Shown piece after piece: positions 2,890 to 7,346 of a stretch of 7,346 nt of DNA. The DNA is from a virus (Duplodnaviria; Heunggongvirae; Uroviricota; Caudoviricetes), in IMG/VR virus record IMGVR_UViG_3300029840_000137, positions 1-7,346 of that record. One strand, given 5' to 3'. Position numbers and translations under genes: made by a program. The notes under the pieces are model-generated. The model was not told where the DNA came from and made no database searches. It was given only the letters and a program-made list of their open reading frames with translations. The stretch's first letter is position 1. Each line of letters begins with the position of its first letter.

Positions 2890-3309
2890 ATGGACAAATA
2901 TGAATTTAGACGACAGCAACTCATCAAAATTCGTGATGAGAAATGCGATGGTAAAGCGGTTAACGTGGCCAGAAAGATCGGGCGCGAGCCTTCTTATGTA
3001 TCAAGAATGTTGTACCCAGAGGGGAAAAAGGGAAAAAAACGGATCGCTGATGATATGGTGGAGATTATCGAAGAGTCCTTTGGGTTACCCCGGGGATGGA
3101 TGGATGGTATCGTTTCATCATCAACGAACACAGCCTCCAGTTATGAAACAAGGGTTCTAACGCCACGACAACGTATTTTTTTAGATCTCTTAGACGAACT
3201 GCCAGAAAGTGAAGCGGATAAATTATTAAAAACTCTTGAAGAGAAAAAACAGTATTACAATATGATCTACGAAGAAATCCGTAAAAAGAAAGCACAAAAC
3301 GCATCATAG
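2890..3309 (+). CDS. CI-like prophage repressor (HTH DNA-binding protein), probably translated from a leaderless mRNA
   Basis: 139 aa. HTH-like segment (VNVARKIGREPSYVSRMLYPEG). Divergent to the cro-like gene. No Shine-Dalgarno; candidate -10 directly upstream. Confidence 0.75.
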   Translation: MDKYEFRRQQLIKIRDEKCDGKAVNVARKIGREPSYVSRMLYPEGKKGKKRIADDMVEIIEESFGLPRGWMDGIVSSSTNTASSYETRVLTPRQRIFLDLLDELPESEADKLLKTLEEKKQYYNMIYEEIRKKKAQNAS

Positions 3310-3493: not shown

Positions 3494-3727
3494 ATGACGG
3501 CAGGGTTCAACTTTAATAACTATGCAGCAGGTTTTTGTTCCGCTACCCCGGCGTTAAGGGGAAATGAGGTCAACATGGATATGCTCAATCTTGGCAACAA
3601 CGAATCTCTGGTATGTGGCGTGTTCCCCAACCAGGACGGCACGTTTACCGCGATGACGTATACCAGAAGCAAAACGTTTAAAACTGAAGCTGGCGCGCGT
3701 CGCTGGTTAACCAGAAACACTGACTGA
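3494..3727 (+). CDS. Small hypothetical early protein (77 aa; alternative start at 3575 gives 50 aa)
   Basis: First ORF downstream of the PL-like promoter. GAGG 9 nt upstream of ATG 3494; GAGG 5 nt upstream of the internal ATG 3575. Sits where the small ydaF/ydaG-type ORFs lie in Rac (from memory). Confidence 0.55.
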   Translation: MTAGFNFNNYAAGFCSATPALRGNEVNMDMLNLGNNESLVCGVFPNQDGTFTAMTYTRSKTFKTEAGARRWLTRNTD

Positions 3728-3738
3728 TGAGGTTGACG

Positions 3739-4140
3739 ATGGAATTTAAAGATTTACCAGTACCATTCCAGGAAATGGCATCGAATGTGGTTCGCTCTCA
3801 ACTGGCGACTCTTGACCTGAGTACCGTAGAAAAAGAAACCATCGATACTATATCCGGTAACGTGCGTCGTGCCTTTATAGGTCTGTATGAAGAGAAGCGC
3901 CTATTCGGCGGACAGAATTCGCCTGAAAACAAGAATCAAGCAAATGATGAGAAGCTGAAACACATTATCGCCTTACTTTTGGAAGACGCAAAACGTCTAC
4001 AGCAACTGGAACCAAATGCAGGCACAGAGGCCCGCATTTGGATTGCCATGAAATCACTCAAATGTGAAAGCAGTGATTATTTCAAAACAACAATTAAAAC
4101 TACTCAACTTTCGGGAGAGCTACTGAAGAAATTGCCATAA
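3739..4140 (+). CDS. Hypothetical early protein (133 aa from ATG 3739; track frame opens at 3727)
   Basis: GAGG 6 nt upstream of ATG 3739. The ATG at 3727 overlaps the upstream stop (TGATGA) but has no Shine-Dalgarno. No domain recognised by eye. Confidence 0.55.
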   Translation: MEFKDLPVPFQEMASNVVRSQLATLDLSTVEKETIDTISGNVRRAFIGLYEEKRLFGGQNSPENKNQANDEKLKHIIALLLEDAKRLQQLEPNAGTEARIWIAMKSLKCESSDYFKTTIKTTQLSGELLKKLP

Positions 4141-4378
4141 GAGCATGGTCTTTCTCTTGTTCTGCAAGATGAGCATTAATACCTGGTATGGTTTTTTCAA
4201 ATTTATCTATCTGTTGAATAACAACTTCGCGGTATACGTTTGTTTTTGTACCACCAAGCGCAGCCGTTAATGCAGAAAGCATATTTAGTATCATATCAGT
4301 GCGATATGAAAGAATCCTGATAGCTTCATCTTGTTTTTCAATAATAGATTGCAGGGCCTCAATTTGCTTTTTATCCAT
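4100..4378 (-). CDS. Hypothetical small protein (92 aa from ATG 4378; track frame extends to 4417), oriented against the early-left operon
   Basis: Strong AGGAGGG 4 nt upstream of the ATG at plus 4376-4378; the 4417 start has no Shine-Dalgarno. AT-rich. The 3' end overlaps the convergent plus-strand ORF by 41 bp. Contains a short hydrophobic stretch (MILNMLSALTAALGG). Confidence 0.5.
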   Translation of the reverse strand: MDKKQIEALQSIIEKQDEAIRILSYRTDMILNMLSALTAALGGTKTNVYREVVIQQIDKFEKTIPGINAHLAEQEKDHALMAISSVALPKVE

Positions 4379-4612
4379 TTCACCCTCCTGAGGGTTGGTA
4401 ATTAAGGAGTTCTCCACGGGTCAGGTGGAGTGCGTGCGCCGGACACGGGTGAACATCCGGCACTGACAGTTTACTGAAAGGATATGTCCCTGAAAAGTCA
4501 GGGCATAACGCGAAAGCGCACGGCGAAATTGGTCTCTCTGTACGGTGTCGTTAAATTTAGTTCGACCGTGCGCTTCCGGTTGTGAATAACAACATTGCTG
4601 TGTGTAGCCCTT

Positions 4613-4653
4613 GGCGGACATCGGTTTGCCGATTGCTGATGTCCGCCCTTTTT
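4613..4653 (+). terminator. Rho-independent terminator, plus strand
   Basis: Perfect 10-bp stem GGCGGACATC (4613-4622) / GATGTCCGCC (4638-4647) with a 15-nt loop, followed by CTTTTT (4648-4653). Confidence 0.7.
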
Positions 4654-4829
4654 AAAGTGAATTTTGTGATGCGGTGAATGCGGCTATGCGCACGCGGAAC
4701 AGTTAAACCGACAGGATGTCACGGAAAGTCATCGTCCCCTGACCCGGCGTTAGTTGTTAACTGGTTAACGTCACCTGGAGGTACCAGGCACCGCATCAAC
4801 AAAGTTCATTTGTGAAAATGGAGATAATT

Positions 4830-5051
4830 ATGATTGCTCATCACTTCGGAACTGATGAAATACCACGTCAGTGCGTGACGCCTGGCGATTATGTTCTTCA
4901 TGAAGGTCGGACATATATCGCTTCAGCAAACAATATTGAAAAGAGAAAACTCTATATTCGTAACTTCACAACAAAAACATGCATTACCGACTGCATGATT
5001 AAAGTTTTCATCGGGCGCGATGACTTACCCGTAAAAGCAGCGTCGTTGTGA
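4830..5051 (+). CDS. kilR: KilR-like cell-division inhibitor (73 aa from ATG 4830; track frame opens at GTG 4812)
   Basis: GGAG 6 nt upstream of ATG 4830. The 73-aa length matches Rac KilR and the position between the immunity region and recE is as in Rac. Identity rests on recollection of [10 protein letters not shown]... and on context. Confidence 0.6.
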
Positions 5052-5134: not shown

Positions 5135-5521
5135 ATGAAAGAACTTGCGCAAAATGAAATATTTTCCGAAACCAGTCCTGATGCAATAAATGAAGTCAAA
5201 GAAATTGCAGAACGCATCAGTAAAATATGCAAAGAATACAAAATCGACTTTGTATTTTCTTTTTCAGTACTTACAGAAGTTGGAAATAACGAATATAAGG
5301 ACAGTCGTTTTGTTTTATGTGGGTTAAATGGCAAAACACCAAGCCCATATATTCATGCTGCATGTGAAGTCGTCAGAAGCAACATTGGAGCACAACAAAT
5401 CCATACACTGGCGCAGGCTCTTGAGTTTGCAAGAGAAAATTCTGAGTGCGACTGCCCTGAATGCCAGCACGAAAAGGGAAAAACAACTCACAAAACAGCA
5501 AACCAGGCAACCTTCCACTGA
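5135..5521 (+). CDS. Hypothetical protein with C-terminal CxCxxC motif (CDCPEC), possibly YdaE-like zinc-binding
   Basis: 128-aa ORF between kilR-like and recE-like genes, in the slot held by ydaE/racC in Rac. Weak A-rich ribosome-binding region. Confidence 0.65.
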   Translation: MKELAQNEIFSETSPDAINEVKEIAERISKICKEYKIDFVFSFSVLTEVGNNEYKDSRFVLCGLNGKTPSPYIHAACEVVRSNIGAQQIHTLAQALEFARENSECDCPECQHEKGKTTHKTANQATFH

Positions 5522-5628
5522 AATAAAAATCCGGCAGCGCAGGCTACCGGATTTCTCCCTGCGTCACCGTATTCGGAGAAATCAGACAAAGGGCCGCTAA
5601 TTCTAATCCAGCCAGAGGTTTAAATACA

Positions 5629-7346
5629 ATGAGCGCTGATAAACAGACTTTTGCACTACACTGCGAAGCAAAAAACGATAAAGTCAGAAAACGCCTTGGC
5701 ATCAAAGGCGGTTTTTTCTGGACCGAGGCCAGAAAACTTTCTGTCGCAGTTTCCCGCTGCATTGCAGCCATGGACGATGCAGGCTACGACGAGGATGATT
5801 TCAAAAAACCCGTTCGCGTAAATTTCCCCGTCGTGAATGACCTTCCACCGGAAGGCGTGTTTGATACTGAATTCTGCAACCGCTATGAAAAAGGCGGGGA
5901 AGATGGCATCACCATGATGGCTATATCCTTCAATGACAACATCAACGGTGAAGATGCCACAACTGCTGGCGATGACAACGATGACCCGGACGGAACTATT
6001 CCGGATGATGTGGAGAAAAGCGAATCCCCGGACAGCGACGATGACTGTTCTGAGTGTGAAACTCCCGTCGCCACTCTGAGCCTTACTCATCGCTTCCTTC
6101 ACCTCTTCTTCTTCAGCAAGGATGAAGATGGAAAATACCGGCATCACGCCACACCAGAACAACGCAATAACGTGATCCGTATGGAGATGGACACAGAGGA
6201 CAGTTACCTTCAGAGCCTGCTTACTGCTGTGCGCGCCGCACATCATGAACTGGATAAACTGACGAACTATCACCTTAGTCGCCTGGCTGAATCTGTAGGG
6301 AAAGCATTCCCCCACTCTGCAAATCATCGCATCAGCCCGGCTGAATTCGACAAGTTCATTTCCACCTGGATGAAAACTGACTACCTTGATCAGGGCCTGC
6401 TGACAAAAGAATGGCAGAACGGAAATTATGTTTCAGGCATTACCCGTACGCCTTCCGGTGCTAACGCTGGCGGCGGAAATCTTACCGATCGTGGTGAAGG
6501 ATTCAAACATGATAAGACATCACTCGCACGAGATGTAGCCACCGGCGTTCTGGCCCGTTCAATGGATGTGGATATTTATAACCTGCACCCAGCACACGCA
6601 AAACGCGTTGAAGAAATCGTGTCAGAGAATAAGCCGCCCTTTTCTGTTTTTCGCGACAAATTTATCGCCATGCCCGGTGGGCTGGATTATTCCCGCGCCA
6701 TTGTGGTGGCTTCCGTGAAAGAAGCACCAATCGGCATTGAGGCCATCCCGGCACGCGTGACTGAATATCTCAACAAAGTGTTGACCGAAACCGATCACGC
6801 TAACCCGGATCCGGAAATCGTGGAAATTGCCTGCGGTCGCTCATCAGCACCGATGCCGCAGCGCGGAACAGCAGAAGGAAAACATGGCGATGAAGAAAAG
6901 CAACAAGCATCGGACACAATGGCTAATGAACAGGCAGCGCCTGAATCAGTGGAAGAAATTCCAGTTAAACATAATGAGGACACGCAATCACTGGAAAATG
7001 TCTCATCTGTAGAAACGAAATACCAGGAACTGAGGGAGGAACTCAATAAAGCCAGGGAAAACATCCCCCCAAAAAATCCAGTCGATGCCGACAAATTACT
7101 GGCTGCCTCGCGTGGAGAATTCGTTGAAGGCATCAGTAACCCTGCTGATCCGAAGTGGGTGAAGGGGATCCAGACTCGCGACACTGAGGACCAGAATCAG
7201 TCCAAAGTGGAACAAATTGCCCCAGAAGCGGGACAAAACAGCCCGGATACGCAACAAAACGGGTCAGAAGAGCAACAGCCAGGGCCAGTAGCGCAACCGG
7301 AGCTGGAAAAAAACTGCCGCGTCTGTGGTCAGACTGGCGGGGGTAA
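5629..7346 (+). CDS. recE: RecE-like protein (exodeoxyribonuclease VIII family), N-terminal 572 codons; 3' end beyond the window
   Basis: Frame open from ATG 5629 to the window end. AGAGG 10 nt upstream. Translated segments ([101 protein letters not shown]) match my recollection of E. coli RecE. Absent from the ORF track because it has no in-window stop. Confidence 0.75.

Follow-up and report, generated by a model that had tools for sequence, protein, structure and literature searches.

A structured leader and a 92-aa protein gene as a candidate accessory cassette opposing the early-left operon of a Rac/Qin-type prophage

Introduction

We report that the small minus-strand ORF at 4100-4378 in a 7,346-nt stretch of tailed-phage DNA (hereafter the window; IMG/VR record IMGVR_UViG_3300029840_000137, Caudoviricetes), which encodes a 92-aa protein, is by sequence comparison almost certainly a real gene under purifying selection, and is very probably one interchangeable cargo on a shared leader. 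As a tentative explanation, which we hold at somewhat below even probability, the gene and its leader could form an accessory or moron cassette, complete in itself, that sits within the early-left operon of a lambdoid prophage of the Rac/Qin type, is switched on in the lysogen and, most plausibly, interferes with superinfecting phages.

Morons, as Hendrix and colleagues use the term, are extra genes that carry their own promoter and terminator and lie between conserved phage genes. Accessory genes of the immunity region with an abortive-infection function are an established theme as well, with rexAB and bstA as examples (PMC8585504).

Results

The 92-aa gene and its family

The CDS starts at ATG 4378, which is the start used by RefSeq (WP_000358771.1, hypothetical protein), by the PHROG profile phrog_18692, matched over its full length (residues 1-92 of 92, E 5.9e-63), and by every homologue. 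An earlier sequence-only reading had given the ORF as 4100-4417 (-), which contains the real ORF but is the longest, GTG-started form of 105 aa instead of the 92-aa ATG form. The same reading correctly described a near-consensus Shine-Dalgarno sequence (SD), AGGAGGG at 4383-4389 (-) with a 4-nt spacer to the ATG, and a 41-bp overlap with the plus-strand ORF at 3727-4140, which proves exact, 3′ to 3′, at 4100-4140, the last 41 nt of that ORF, and which recurs identically in Salmonella and in P2-like contexts. No intrinsic terminator is predicted after the stop codon of the 92-aa gene. The gene has a GC content of 36.9%, the window one of 47.6% and the adjoining leader one of 60%.

The reading frame is kept in related prophages. 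Homologues are 90-98 aa long at identities ranging from 99% to as low as 33%, residue conservation extends to the C-terminus, dN/dS is 0.15-0.25, and the frame is the sole stop-free one of six, with the lowest pN/pS of the six. Among complete Escherichia coli genomes, 127 of 5,426 (2.3%) carry the gene, 121 of these 127 records at a nucleotide identity of at least 99%, and EPEC E2348/69 (locus E2348C_RS07385) and EAEC 042 both encode the protein. Rac-like prophages of Salmonella share the layout, as do P2-like prophages, an S24-repressor lambdoid prophage, Pluralibacter and Edwardsiella, and the gene also occurs outside the kil/dicB/sRNA setting, in a Klebsiella island and in P2-like prophages. 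A tblastn search of 50,697 sequenced phage genomes returned no homologue, and the gene may therefore be confined to prophages that are defective. Species-representative genomes scanned with the protein pattern of the family gave no match, and a literature search on the protein accession returned nothing.

The early-left operon

The direction of the early-left operon is defined by the prophage repressor (phrog_5736, 2890-3309, +), from which YdaS/YdaT-type cro/cII genes diverge (2099-2789, -). A DUF1391 early gene of the YdfA/YdaF type (3494-3727, +; PF07151, E 4.7e-28) lies upstream of the 137-aa gene at 3727-4140 (+; phrog_1363), for which the RefSeq-type start at 3739 would give 133 aa, and in which a conserved N-terminal module of ~57 aa is followed by a cassette-linked remainder. 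Beyond the 92-aa gene and its leader, a KilS-type sRNA with a terminator hairpin (4599-4648, +) occupies the slot of DicF in Qin-type prophages; it scores 29.5 bits against Rfam DicF (E 3e-4), under the gathering score of 48, and can be aligned to both Rac kilS and E2348/69 DicF. KilS itself has been confirmed by northern blot (PMC8175672). The next early-left gene is kil, encoding an FtsZ inhibitor (4812-5051, +; phrog_294, E 1.6e-36; NF008465, E 1.5e-44). No terminator of the early operon is found ahead of the sRNA at 4599-4648, and in Qin the homologous operon gives a ydfABC-dicF transcript (PMC10448788). PL-type transcription must run antisense over the 92-aa gene, as had been supposed from the sequence.

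The order of repressor, DUF1391 gene, sRNA with terminator and then division inhibitor is shared with the Qin dicBF operon and with Rac kilS-kilR, and the spacer between ydfC and dicF in K-12 Qin matches positions 4393-4584 of the window at 87% identity. In Qin, however, ydfB and ydfC lie on the operon strand and the leader is a cargo-less remnant, and no antisense gene or promoter has been described for Qin dicBF (PMC10448788).

Interchangeable cargos behind one leader

Pairwise blastn comparison with loci bearing five other cargo types and with Qin delimits a variable cassette at 3898-4378: homology stops at the ATG (4376-4378), to begin again at ~3889-3898, within the neighbouring early gene, and identical flanks hold other small genes in place of the 92-aa gene. 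At least 10 unrelated small ORFs, of 30-112 aa and including proline-rich peptides, stand behind the same leader in lambdoid and P2-like prophages, always opposing the early operon. Throughout 160 leader-bearing loci, RecE, DicB, Kil and YdaE are always encoded upstream and DUF1391 and the repressors always downstream, all on the opposite strand, while SieB never co-occurs. In nearly every cargo type the coding sequence reaches into the 3′ end of the early gene, most often over 4-41 nt, and an own terminator is absent.

The earlier proposal of a moron is supported by this exchange between identical flanks, by the deviant GC content and by the occurrence in 2.3% of E. coli genomes, and the presence/absence comparison that it had called for shows Qin without the gene and other cargos between the same flanks. 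That the gene is one among many interchangeable cargos had escaped the sequence-only reading.

About 70 of 120 leader matches in IMG/VR are of the Qin type, a leader with neither SD nor cargo, so the importance of the leader region may lie, in addition or even in place of this, in the opposite strand, where it belongs to the DicF/KilS precursor. The P2-type leader pattern had no match in IMG/VR.

Two simpler groupings of the cargos were rejected. A single divergent superfamily is contradicted by profile-profile comparison, in which four other families reach an hhalign probability of at most 0.3%, the 91-aa MSTENDEII family being the lone distant relative of the 92-aa family (96.8%). A two-gene system formed with the convergent partner is contradicted by the partners, which are unrelated apart from the last ~17 aa opposite the 3′ end of the target, and whose middle domains are shuffled among cargos.

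The leader and its predicted promoter

The conserved leader, comprising the 5′ UTR and the ATG, spans 86 nt (4376-4461, -). RNAalifold consensus folding places in it SL1 (GCCGGAU..GUCCGGC, 4438-4461), SL2 (CUCCAC..GUGGAG, 4412-4430) and SL3, a predicted SD-pairing stem in which CUCCU at 4405-4409 pairs with AGGAG at 4385-4389, so that the SD forms its 3′ arm. Sequence comparison shows conservation of the leader with compensatory changes: over 18 distinct leaders, 91.2% of cells are paired and double-change cells number 13 vs 4.5 in shuffles (0/500), in a test whose leaders are related sequences and the very ones from which the structure was derived. The covariance model R1 finds 4376-4461 at 102 bits and the other leaders at 86-101 bits, and a search of Rfam with the minus strand of 4376-4461 gave no match at the gathering score and none at E up to 10. 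Counts of G.U vs A.C, which bear on the strand of the hairpins, are informative for SL1 only and do not discriminate for SL2 and SL3.

The SD region GGAGGGUAAAAUG is conserved across all leaders, as is the ATG, and the SD is mostly paired by prediction, with a probability of being unpaired of 0.42 here and 0.01-0.46 over the leaders. It had not been noticed earlier that this near-consensus SD belongs to a structured and conserved leader, within which it is predicted to be paired.

Immediately upstream, a sigma-70 promoter is predicted at 4468-4496 (-), with the -35 hexamer TTTTCA at 4491-4496, a 17-nt spacer and the -10 hexamer TAAACT at 4468-4473. The predicted transcription start, at ~4461, is the first base of SL1; the equivalent position in K-12 Qin is about 1,649,130 on the minus strand. 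Of 26 distinct upstream regions, 21 have a -10 hexamer whose end lies 3-12 nt ahead of SL1, vs 29% of shuffles, and a TGn extension is present in several of the leader-associated promoters. The promoter of the 92-aa cassette matches the consensus at 8 of 12 positions, which is below the threshold of the generic scan, and that scan is blank on the minus strand; no LexA box was found near it. We slightly favour an own promoter and expression of the cassette in the lysogen, which would start from this weak predicted sigma-70 promoter.

The protein and searches for its function

The 92-aa protein is predicted to adopt a soluble three-helix fold with a long N-terminal heptad-repeat helix (AF2 model with pLDDT 71.6, helices at 3-42, 46-59 and 69-85; a second AF2 model, pLDDT 66.7). 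It is mildly acidic (pI 5.7) and has no transmembrane segment, the maximal Kyte-Doolittle value in a 19-residue window being 0.93, with 1.6 as the usual threshold for membrane segments.

Searches of Pfam, NCBIfam, PADLOC and PHROGs had as their sole result the PHROG of unknown function. PADLOC-DB v2 yielded zero families for the protein and no significant match for eight of the other cargo families, and these nine families likewise lack a match in Pfam; Rac SieB is also without a match in PADLOC-DB v2, so Sie-type proteins lie outside that database. The one hit of a profile search of PDB sequences was a coiled-coil artefact, GCN4 (E 4.5). When 1.84 billion proteins were searched exhaustively by HMM, family members alone were recovered, and Foldseek comparison of the AF2 models with PDB and BFVD gave nothing below E 0.35. 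Across HMM, profile-profile and fold searches no defence, exclusion, toxin or regulator family resembles the 92-aa protein, and the other cargos are also without similarity to such families. Sub-threshold resemblances, in one family member each, are to IraP (E 0.039) and ORF6C (E 9e-4), both coiled-coil binders. A type II antitoxin of the RelB-like kind (NF048017) was rejected at 15.9 bits vs a cut-off of 50, there being no conserved partner gene either. The profile- and structure-based homology search suggested from the sequence thus delivered family members, and no function from sequence or fold. An exclusion or defence function, which the sequence-only reading had put forward, appears doubtful.

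Discussion

Based on these findings, the explanation that we tentatively prefer runs as follows. The cassette would consist of the weak predicted sigma-70 promoter, the 86-nt structured leader and the AT-rich 92-aa gene, and, as long as the repressor holds the early-left promoter off, the cassette promoter would drive its transcription. Translation of the 92-aa gene may be tuned by the SD-pairing stem, and after induction strong early-left transcription would collide with the cassette and produce a full-length complementary RNA, which would shut the gene off. The protein may benefit the lysogen by binding some other protein, the most plausible outcome being interference with superinfecting phages.

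Such a cassette resembles morons in its presence or absence between conserved flanks, its deviant base composition, its predicted own promoter and its operon-independent orientation. However, it lacks an own terminator, and the promoter and leader are common to at least 10 unrelated cargos rather than private to the 92-aa gene. Likewise, rexAB of lambda and bstA of BTP1 are accessory prophage genes near the repressor and the early-left promoter that are thought to serve the lysogen (PMC8585504). These genes lie downstream of cI on the repressor transcript, encode large proteins and have a demonstrated abortive-infection phenotype, whereas the gene studied here lies on the other strand behind a leader and a predicted promoter of its own, and encodes only 92 aa.

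A small modulator directed at the host or the phage, rather than an exclusion protein, is the alternative that survives best, although we consider it rather unlikely: the protein might bind a host protein and affect physiology, division or stress, or might act in prophage development. Kil, DicB, YdaE and DicF in the neighbourhood are small host-directed effectors, the predicted soluble, coiled-coil-like helix bundle is typical of binders, and the weak resemblances noted above are to coiled-coil binders alone. A role in lytic development, on the other hand, is spoken against by the orientation opposing the lytic operon, and conflict genes usually show just such a pattern, in which cargos turn over fast while their slot close to the immunity region stays fixed.

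A further alternative, which we judge less probable again, is that the convergent promoter and its RNA matter most and not the protein. By polymerase collision and antisense pairing, the minus-strand transcript from ~4461 would insulate the toxic downstream genes, the KilS/DicF sRNA and kil/dicB, from leaky early-left transcription in the lysogen. The small proteins would then be mere additions, or would modulate early functions of the prophage itself. Temperate phages are known to damp lytic genes by antisense promoters, as with PaQ and PRE of lambda and sar of P22. The retention of leader and promoter without cargo in Qin-type prophages, K-12 included, is consistent with insulation, as are the overlap of nearly all cargo types with the 3′ end of the early gene and their lack of a terminator, and the homologous dicB promoter is spontaneously derepressed in a subpopulation (PMC10448788). 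However, the protein is under purifying selection over its whole length at 33-99% identity, a strong SD and the ATG are conserved along with the leader, and the gene occurs in the Klebsiella island and in P2-like prophages without kil, dicB or the sRNA; the abundance of the Qin type, moreover, may simply mirror one successful lineage.

That the 92-aa protein is a divergent or truncated SieB is very improbable, and this reading is already refuted at the level of sequence and topology. The sieB-equivalent slot that the sequence-only reading recognised is confirmed by position and orientation in the gene order of both Rac (ydaF-|sieB|-kilS-kilR) and lambda, where sieB (34482-35036, +) abuts N (35037-35438, -). 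SieB of lambda, P22 and Rac (PF14163) shares with the 92-aa gene the early-left slot, the orientation opposing the PL-type operon and a 3′ end that meets or overlaps that of the early gene; both are accessory genes, mutually exclusive at the loci examined. The proteins themselves differ. As the earlier reading had it, the 92-aa protein is shorter than SieB, about half its size, with a single short hydrophobic stretch that stays below the membrane threshold, whereas Rac SieB reaches 2.19 (10 windows at or above 1.6) and lambda SieB 1.73 (5 windows), and its pI of 5.7 compares with >9 for SieB. That it is not an obvious SieB also holds in the profile search, in which PF14163 did not match the 92-aa protein at E up to 1 while the controls, Rac and lambda SieB, scored 109 and 103 bits, and BLASTP against Rac SieB gave no alignment even at E 100. 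The leader covariance model is silent upstream of Rac sieB and lambda sieB, by which a sieB gene on the same leader is also rejected, and a hairpin resemblance between the upstream region of Rac sieB and L012 is short and not significant.

Finally, a non-functional chance ORF antisense to the sRNA-precursor transcript is hardly credible, for although the ORF lies entirely within the early-left primary transcript, its near-constant length, its conservation up to the C-terminus, its dN/dS, the stops in all five other frames and the conserved SD and ATG effectively rule this out.

Returning to the cassette reading, we raise a broader proposal with more reserve than the cassette itself, namely that the leader could be a portable expression platform, in which a promoter is combined with a hairpin that stabilises the 5′ end and with an anti-SD riboregulator, at a hypervariable early-region slot of lambdoid and P2-like prophages of the Enterobacteriaceae. 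The cargos would then be unrecognised small effectors made by the lysogen, with exclusion, defence or host-modulating roles, and would be silenced once induction starts the convergent early transcription.

If the cassette is silent, the 92-aa gene is merely another conserved hypothetical prophage ORF. The region is also the one from which the regulatory RNAs DicF and KilS arise, and from the layout one may suspect an inherent switch, based on convergent transcription and the SD-pairing stem, that would allow expression in the lysogen and prevent it during lytic growth. Domain-based defence finders miss effectors of this kind, as none of the nine cargo families tested matches PADLOC or Pfam; if the cassette is expressed in lysogens, the leader would provide a sequence handle by which an entire class of such tiny effectors of prophages could be found.

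Gene order and the convergent 92-aa gene

The window spans the immunity and early region of an E. coli prophage, a lambdoid one of the Rac/Qin type. Its minus strand carries a gene continuing leftwards past position 1 (1-357) and the DnaC-like (361-1107), O-like (1114-2091), YdaT/cII-like (2099-2524) and YdaS/cro-like (2508-2789) genes, and its plus strand the repressor (2890-3309), a DUF1391 gene (3494-3727), a 137-aa early gene (3727-4140), an sRNA with its terminator (4599-4648), kil (4812-5051), a 128-aa gene (5135-5521) and a RecE-like exonuclease ORF (5527-7346, 606 codons open to the right window end); the first and last run off the window ends and are for that reason absent from the ORF list. 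Because of this plus-strand order, the strand right of the repressor is taken as the early-left, PL-type operon. The O-like replication gene contains a 17-N run (1629-1645), masked or unresolved and X in translation.

Against this operon is read a 92-aa gene (4100-4378, minus) with the Shine-Dalgarno sequence (SD) AGGAGGG, as the sequence-only reading had described; its ATG lies at 4378, four bases after the SD (4383-4389), and the coordinates of that reading, 4100-4417 (minus), belong to the longest version of the ORF, with a GTG start and 105 aa. Its overlap with the 3′ end of the 137-aa gene, given as 41 bp, proved exact. The gene is real and under selection, with a dN/dS of 0.15-0.25 (Nei-Gojobori, moderately diverged pairs); only the annotated frame among the six is stop-free, pN/pS is also lowest there, and related prophages keep this frame. 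Relatives were confined to E. coli and Salmonella in a word-indexed search, and an exhaustive profile search (1.84 billion proteins) and a second profile search added homologues of 90-98 aa in Salmonella, Klebsiella and metagenomes that are 33-47% identical, the family's conserved residues spanning L9 to P89. The gene alone is nothing new, its identical product being annotated in RefSeq as hypothetical protein WP_000358771.1 (e.g. E2348C_RS07385 in EPEC E2348/69) and in PHROGs as phrog_18692, of unknown function (match 1-92 of 92). It is an accessory gene, present in 127 of 5,426 complete E. coli genomes (nucleotide identity at least 99% in 121 of the 127 records). A tblastn search of 50,697 sequenced phage genomes did not find it. 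It is AT-rich (36.9% GC) whereas the adjoining leader has 60% GC.

AlphaFold2 predicted three helices (3-42, 46-59 and 69-85) with modest confidence (pLDDT 66.7 and 71.6), and the first has a continuous 3-4 hydrophobic repeat, read from sequence; the pI is 5.7. No significant match was found in Pfam, NCBIfam, PADLOC or PDB sequences, nor by Foldseek against PDB and BFVD; the PADLOC null is uninformative since SieB itself is missing from that library.

The gene occupies the sieB place, as had been claimed: K-12 Rac is ordered racR, ydaG, ydaF (DUF1391), sieB on the opposite strand, kilS, kilR and ydaE, which is the order of the window, and in lambda sieB (34482-35036, plus) directly adjoins N (35037-35438, minus), the two genes being convergent. 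The proteins themselves are unrelated. That the product is itself SieB is rejected, in agreement with its description as not an obvious SieB, as it gave no alignment to Rac SieB, had no membrane segment (maximum KD19 0.93) and lacked a PF14163 match while both SieB controls exceeded 100 bits. Homologues occur in the same layout in Salmonella Rac-like prophages (overlap again 41 nt), in P2-like prophages, directly after cox and one early gene, and in a lambdoid prophage with an S24-type repressor and a HipA-like/DUF3037 pair; one Klebsiella homologue adjoins integrase and restriction-modification genes.

A structured leader shared by unrelated cargos

The 86 nt before the ATG (4376-4461, minus) are conserved in every one of these otherwise unrelated contexts, and RNAalifold predicted three hairpins in this leader, SL1 lying at its extreme 5′ end. 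SL2 varies in a compensatory manner (CUCCAC/GUGGAG, CCCGAC/GUCGGG, CCCCAC/GUAGGG), as does SL3, in which CUCCAU pairs with AUGGAG of the SD, or CUCCU with AGGAG in the window type. Among 18 distinct leaders, 91.2% of cells pair (slid controls, 31-46%) and double-change cells number 13 against 4.5 expected, a value reached by none of 500 shuffles, for leaders that are related to one another and a structure derived from the same sequences. Partition-function folding kept the SD mostly paired, with P(unpaired) ranging from 0.01 to 0.46 among leaders (0.42 for the copy in the window). These leaders also served to build a covariance model, which gave 86-102 bits on all of them and no score upstream of Rac or lambda sieB.

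A leader pattern search in genomes and IMG/VR found further small ORFs, or cargos, behind it: besides the family of the 92-aa gene with a distant 91-aa branch (hhalign probability 96.8%), these are proteins of 77 aa (phrog_10348), 73/74 aa (phrog_7249), 63/69 aa (phrog_2605), 104 aa (phrog_4753), 63/67 aa, and 86, 96 and 112 aa, and proline-rich peptides of 30-36 aa such as MLINQFGDLPKPTPDGQVPYRPAPSPKPPEKP (L037 2661-2753, L056 2818-2916, L087 115-225, L256, L262, L268). None of eight other cargos tested matched Pfam or, significantly, PADLOC; six of the eight belong to PHROGs of unknown function, all nine sequences found by cluster look-up are named "hypothetical" in public records, and in four other families tested relatedness to the 92-aa protein was not detectable. 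A 32-aa proline-rich example matched neither Pfam nor a PHROG, and the exact sequence of a 30-aa form was absent from a 15-billion-protein collection. Many unrelated small cargos share this conserved leader, with its hairpins and predicted SD pairing.

Exchange breakpoints lie at the ATG. Compared with prophages bearing five other cargo types, homology to the window ends at 4376-4378 and restarts at ~3889-3898, past residue ~57 of the 137-aa gene; because it resumes inside that gene, the latter is modular, with a conserved N-terminal ~57 aa (common to proteins of PHROGs 6937, 2151 and 9419) and exchangeable C-terminal parts. In Salmonella, its C-terminal LKHIIALLLEDAK...EPNAGTEARIWIA domain (phrog_30817, 12693, 32391, 2982) stands alone as a 71-aa gene. 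Cargo and partner C-terminus are not a cognate pair: the LKHIIALLLEDAK domain also accompanies an unrelated MTQEEK cargo, the "DNQDLHEKY" domain three different ones, and just the final ~17 residues, whose codons lie opposite the 3′ end of the cargo, follow the cargo. In almost all cargo types the ORF runs into the 3′ end of the early gene, with overlaps of 4-41 nt in most of them, and no intrinsic terminator was found after the 92-aa gene. Within the same flanking homology, some prophages carry this gene and others a different cargo, and K-12 Qin has none.

In 160 leader-bearing loci, oriented by the leader, RecE (110 loci), DicB (93), Kil (19), YdaE (9) and RecT (5) always lie upstream on the opposite strand and DUF1391 (101) always downstream on the opposite strand, as do the repressors (DicA 75, RacR 6), with the exception of two DicA hits on the plus strand and one stray hit each for two further repressor markers. 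The cargo always faces the early operon, likewise in Pluralibacter and Edwardsiella prophages. The SieB marker occurred in none of the 160 loci, and therefore one and the same slot holds either the leader cassette or sieB. In related prophages, other accessory modules, candidates for defence or toxin functions, are inserted beside the repressor: a DUF6932 protein with a 310-aa partner (L004 7011-8413, L005 4968-6370), a HipA-like kinase with DUF3037 (L012 5628-7276), and a three-gene plus-strand block in Edwardsiella (L267 9525-11625).

Predicted promoter and the sRNA region

Of 26 distinct upstream regions, 21 have a -10-like hexamer whose end lies 3-12 nt (mostly 6) ahead of SL1, compared with 29% of shuffled sequences, and independent lineages have extended -10 elements (TGtTATTAT, TGgTATTAT, TGgTAAACT). 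The by-eye candidates TGcTATATC (L009) and TGcTATACA (L010) were not chosen by the scan, which scored no promoter in L009 and selected TACACT, without a TGn extension, in L010. The promoter predicted in the window (minus) has -35 TTTTCA (4491-4496), a 17-nt spacer and -10 TAAACT (4468-4473), with a predicted start at ~4461; it is weak (consensus 8/12) and was missed by a generic promoter scan. A perfect inverted repeat, CCCTGA-N4-TCAGGG (4488-4503), overlaps the predicted -35, is kept in E. coli and Salmonella Rac-like copies and absent from P2-like ones, and may be a protein-binding site.

Positions 4393-4584 share 87% identity with the K-12 Qin spacer between ydfC and dicF, the junction lying directly at the SD. 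Qin (L015 2529-2631, minus; ~1,649,028-1,649,130) retains the promoter-like region and SL1-SL2 (54 bits with the leader model) but neither SD nor cargo, a type accounting for ~70 of 120 IMG/VR leader hits; if active, this remnant would produce RNA antisense to ydfC. In Qin, the repressed dicB promoter is the start of a ydfABC-dicF transcript from which DicF is processed, and an internal or antisense promoter was not reported (PMC10448788).

The window's sRNA in the DicF slot (4546-4657, plus) is a homologue of KilS, which a northern blot has verified as an sRNA of K-12 Rac (PMC8175672). In E2348/69 and strain 382634_2f this place is taken by canonical DicF, so the sRNA slot is itself exchangeable. 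The single-stranded 5′ part of the window sRNA, AUUGCUGUGUGUAGCCCUUGG, has nearly the same sequence as the RprA 3′ seed region (Rfam match 30.3 bits, below gathering). Within 4511-4576, GGAAGCGCAC and GUGCGCUUUC could form a long-range stem of ~11 bp with a 46-nt loop; its Qin equivalent lies, by approximate correspondence, near the RNase III cut reported to yield a 190-nt DicF species (PMC10448788). The kil leader (4650-4844, plus), conserved in alignment in Rac, E2348/69 and 382634_2f, weakly matches Rfam STnc100 (28.3 bits, E 4.6e-4, below gathering).

Discussion

By homology to Qin, the early-left transcript must cross the whole 92-aa gene antisense to reach the KilS-type sRNA, which bears out the antisense geometry foreseen from the sequence. 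We infer that the cassette (predicted promoter, leader and cargo) is expressed from its own promoter in the lysogen; after induction, it would be opposed by an RNA complementary to its full length and by polymerases running head-on, and convergent early transcription would presumably silence it.

Alternatively, part of the leader conservation may serve the plus-strand precursor, or the antisense promoter itself may have a role, its RNA rather than the protein damping leaky early-left transcription of toxic downstream genes; G.U counts tell the strands apart for SL1 only. A leader function on the cargo strand is supported mainly because the conserved block includes SD and ATG and because the leader is found, too, without the upstream sRNA (L037, L129, L010, L260).

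For the 92-aa protein, a protein-binding mode of action seems plausible. The slot and moron layout of the proposed lysogeny-expressed exclusion or defence moron hold, but the function so far does not; profile and structure searches returned homologues and a PHROG and no functional match. A role in superinfection exclusion or defence is speculative. Speaking for it are the slot (sieB belongs here, and in other phages rexAB and bstA lie nearby; PMC8585504), a fast exchange of cargos of the kind typical of conflict genes, and the restriction-modification or HipA-like modules that occasionally adjoin the cassette.

In conclusion, the 92-aa gene is a selected, accessory gene in the sieB slot, in fixed orientation against the early operon, and the leader platform with interchangeable small cargos to which it belongs appears, as far as Rfam and literature searches reach, to be undescribed.
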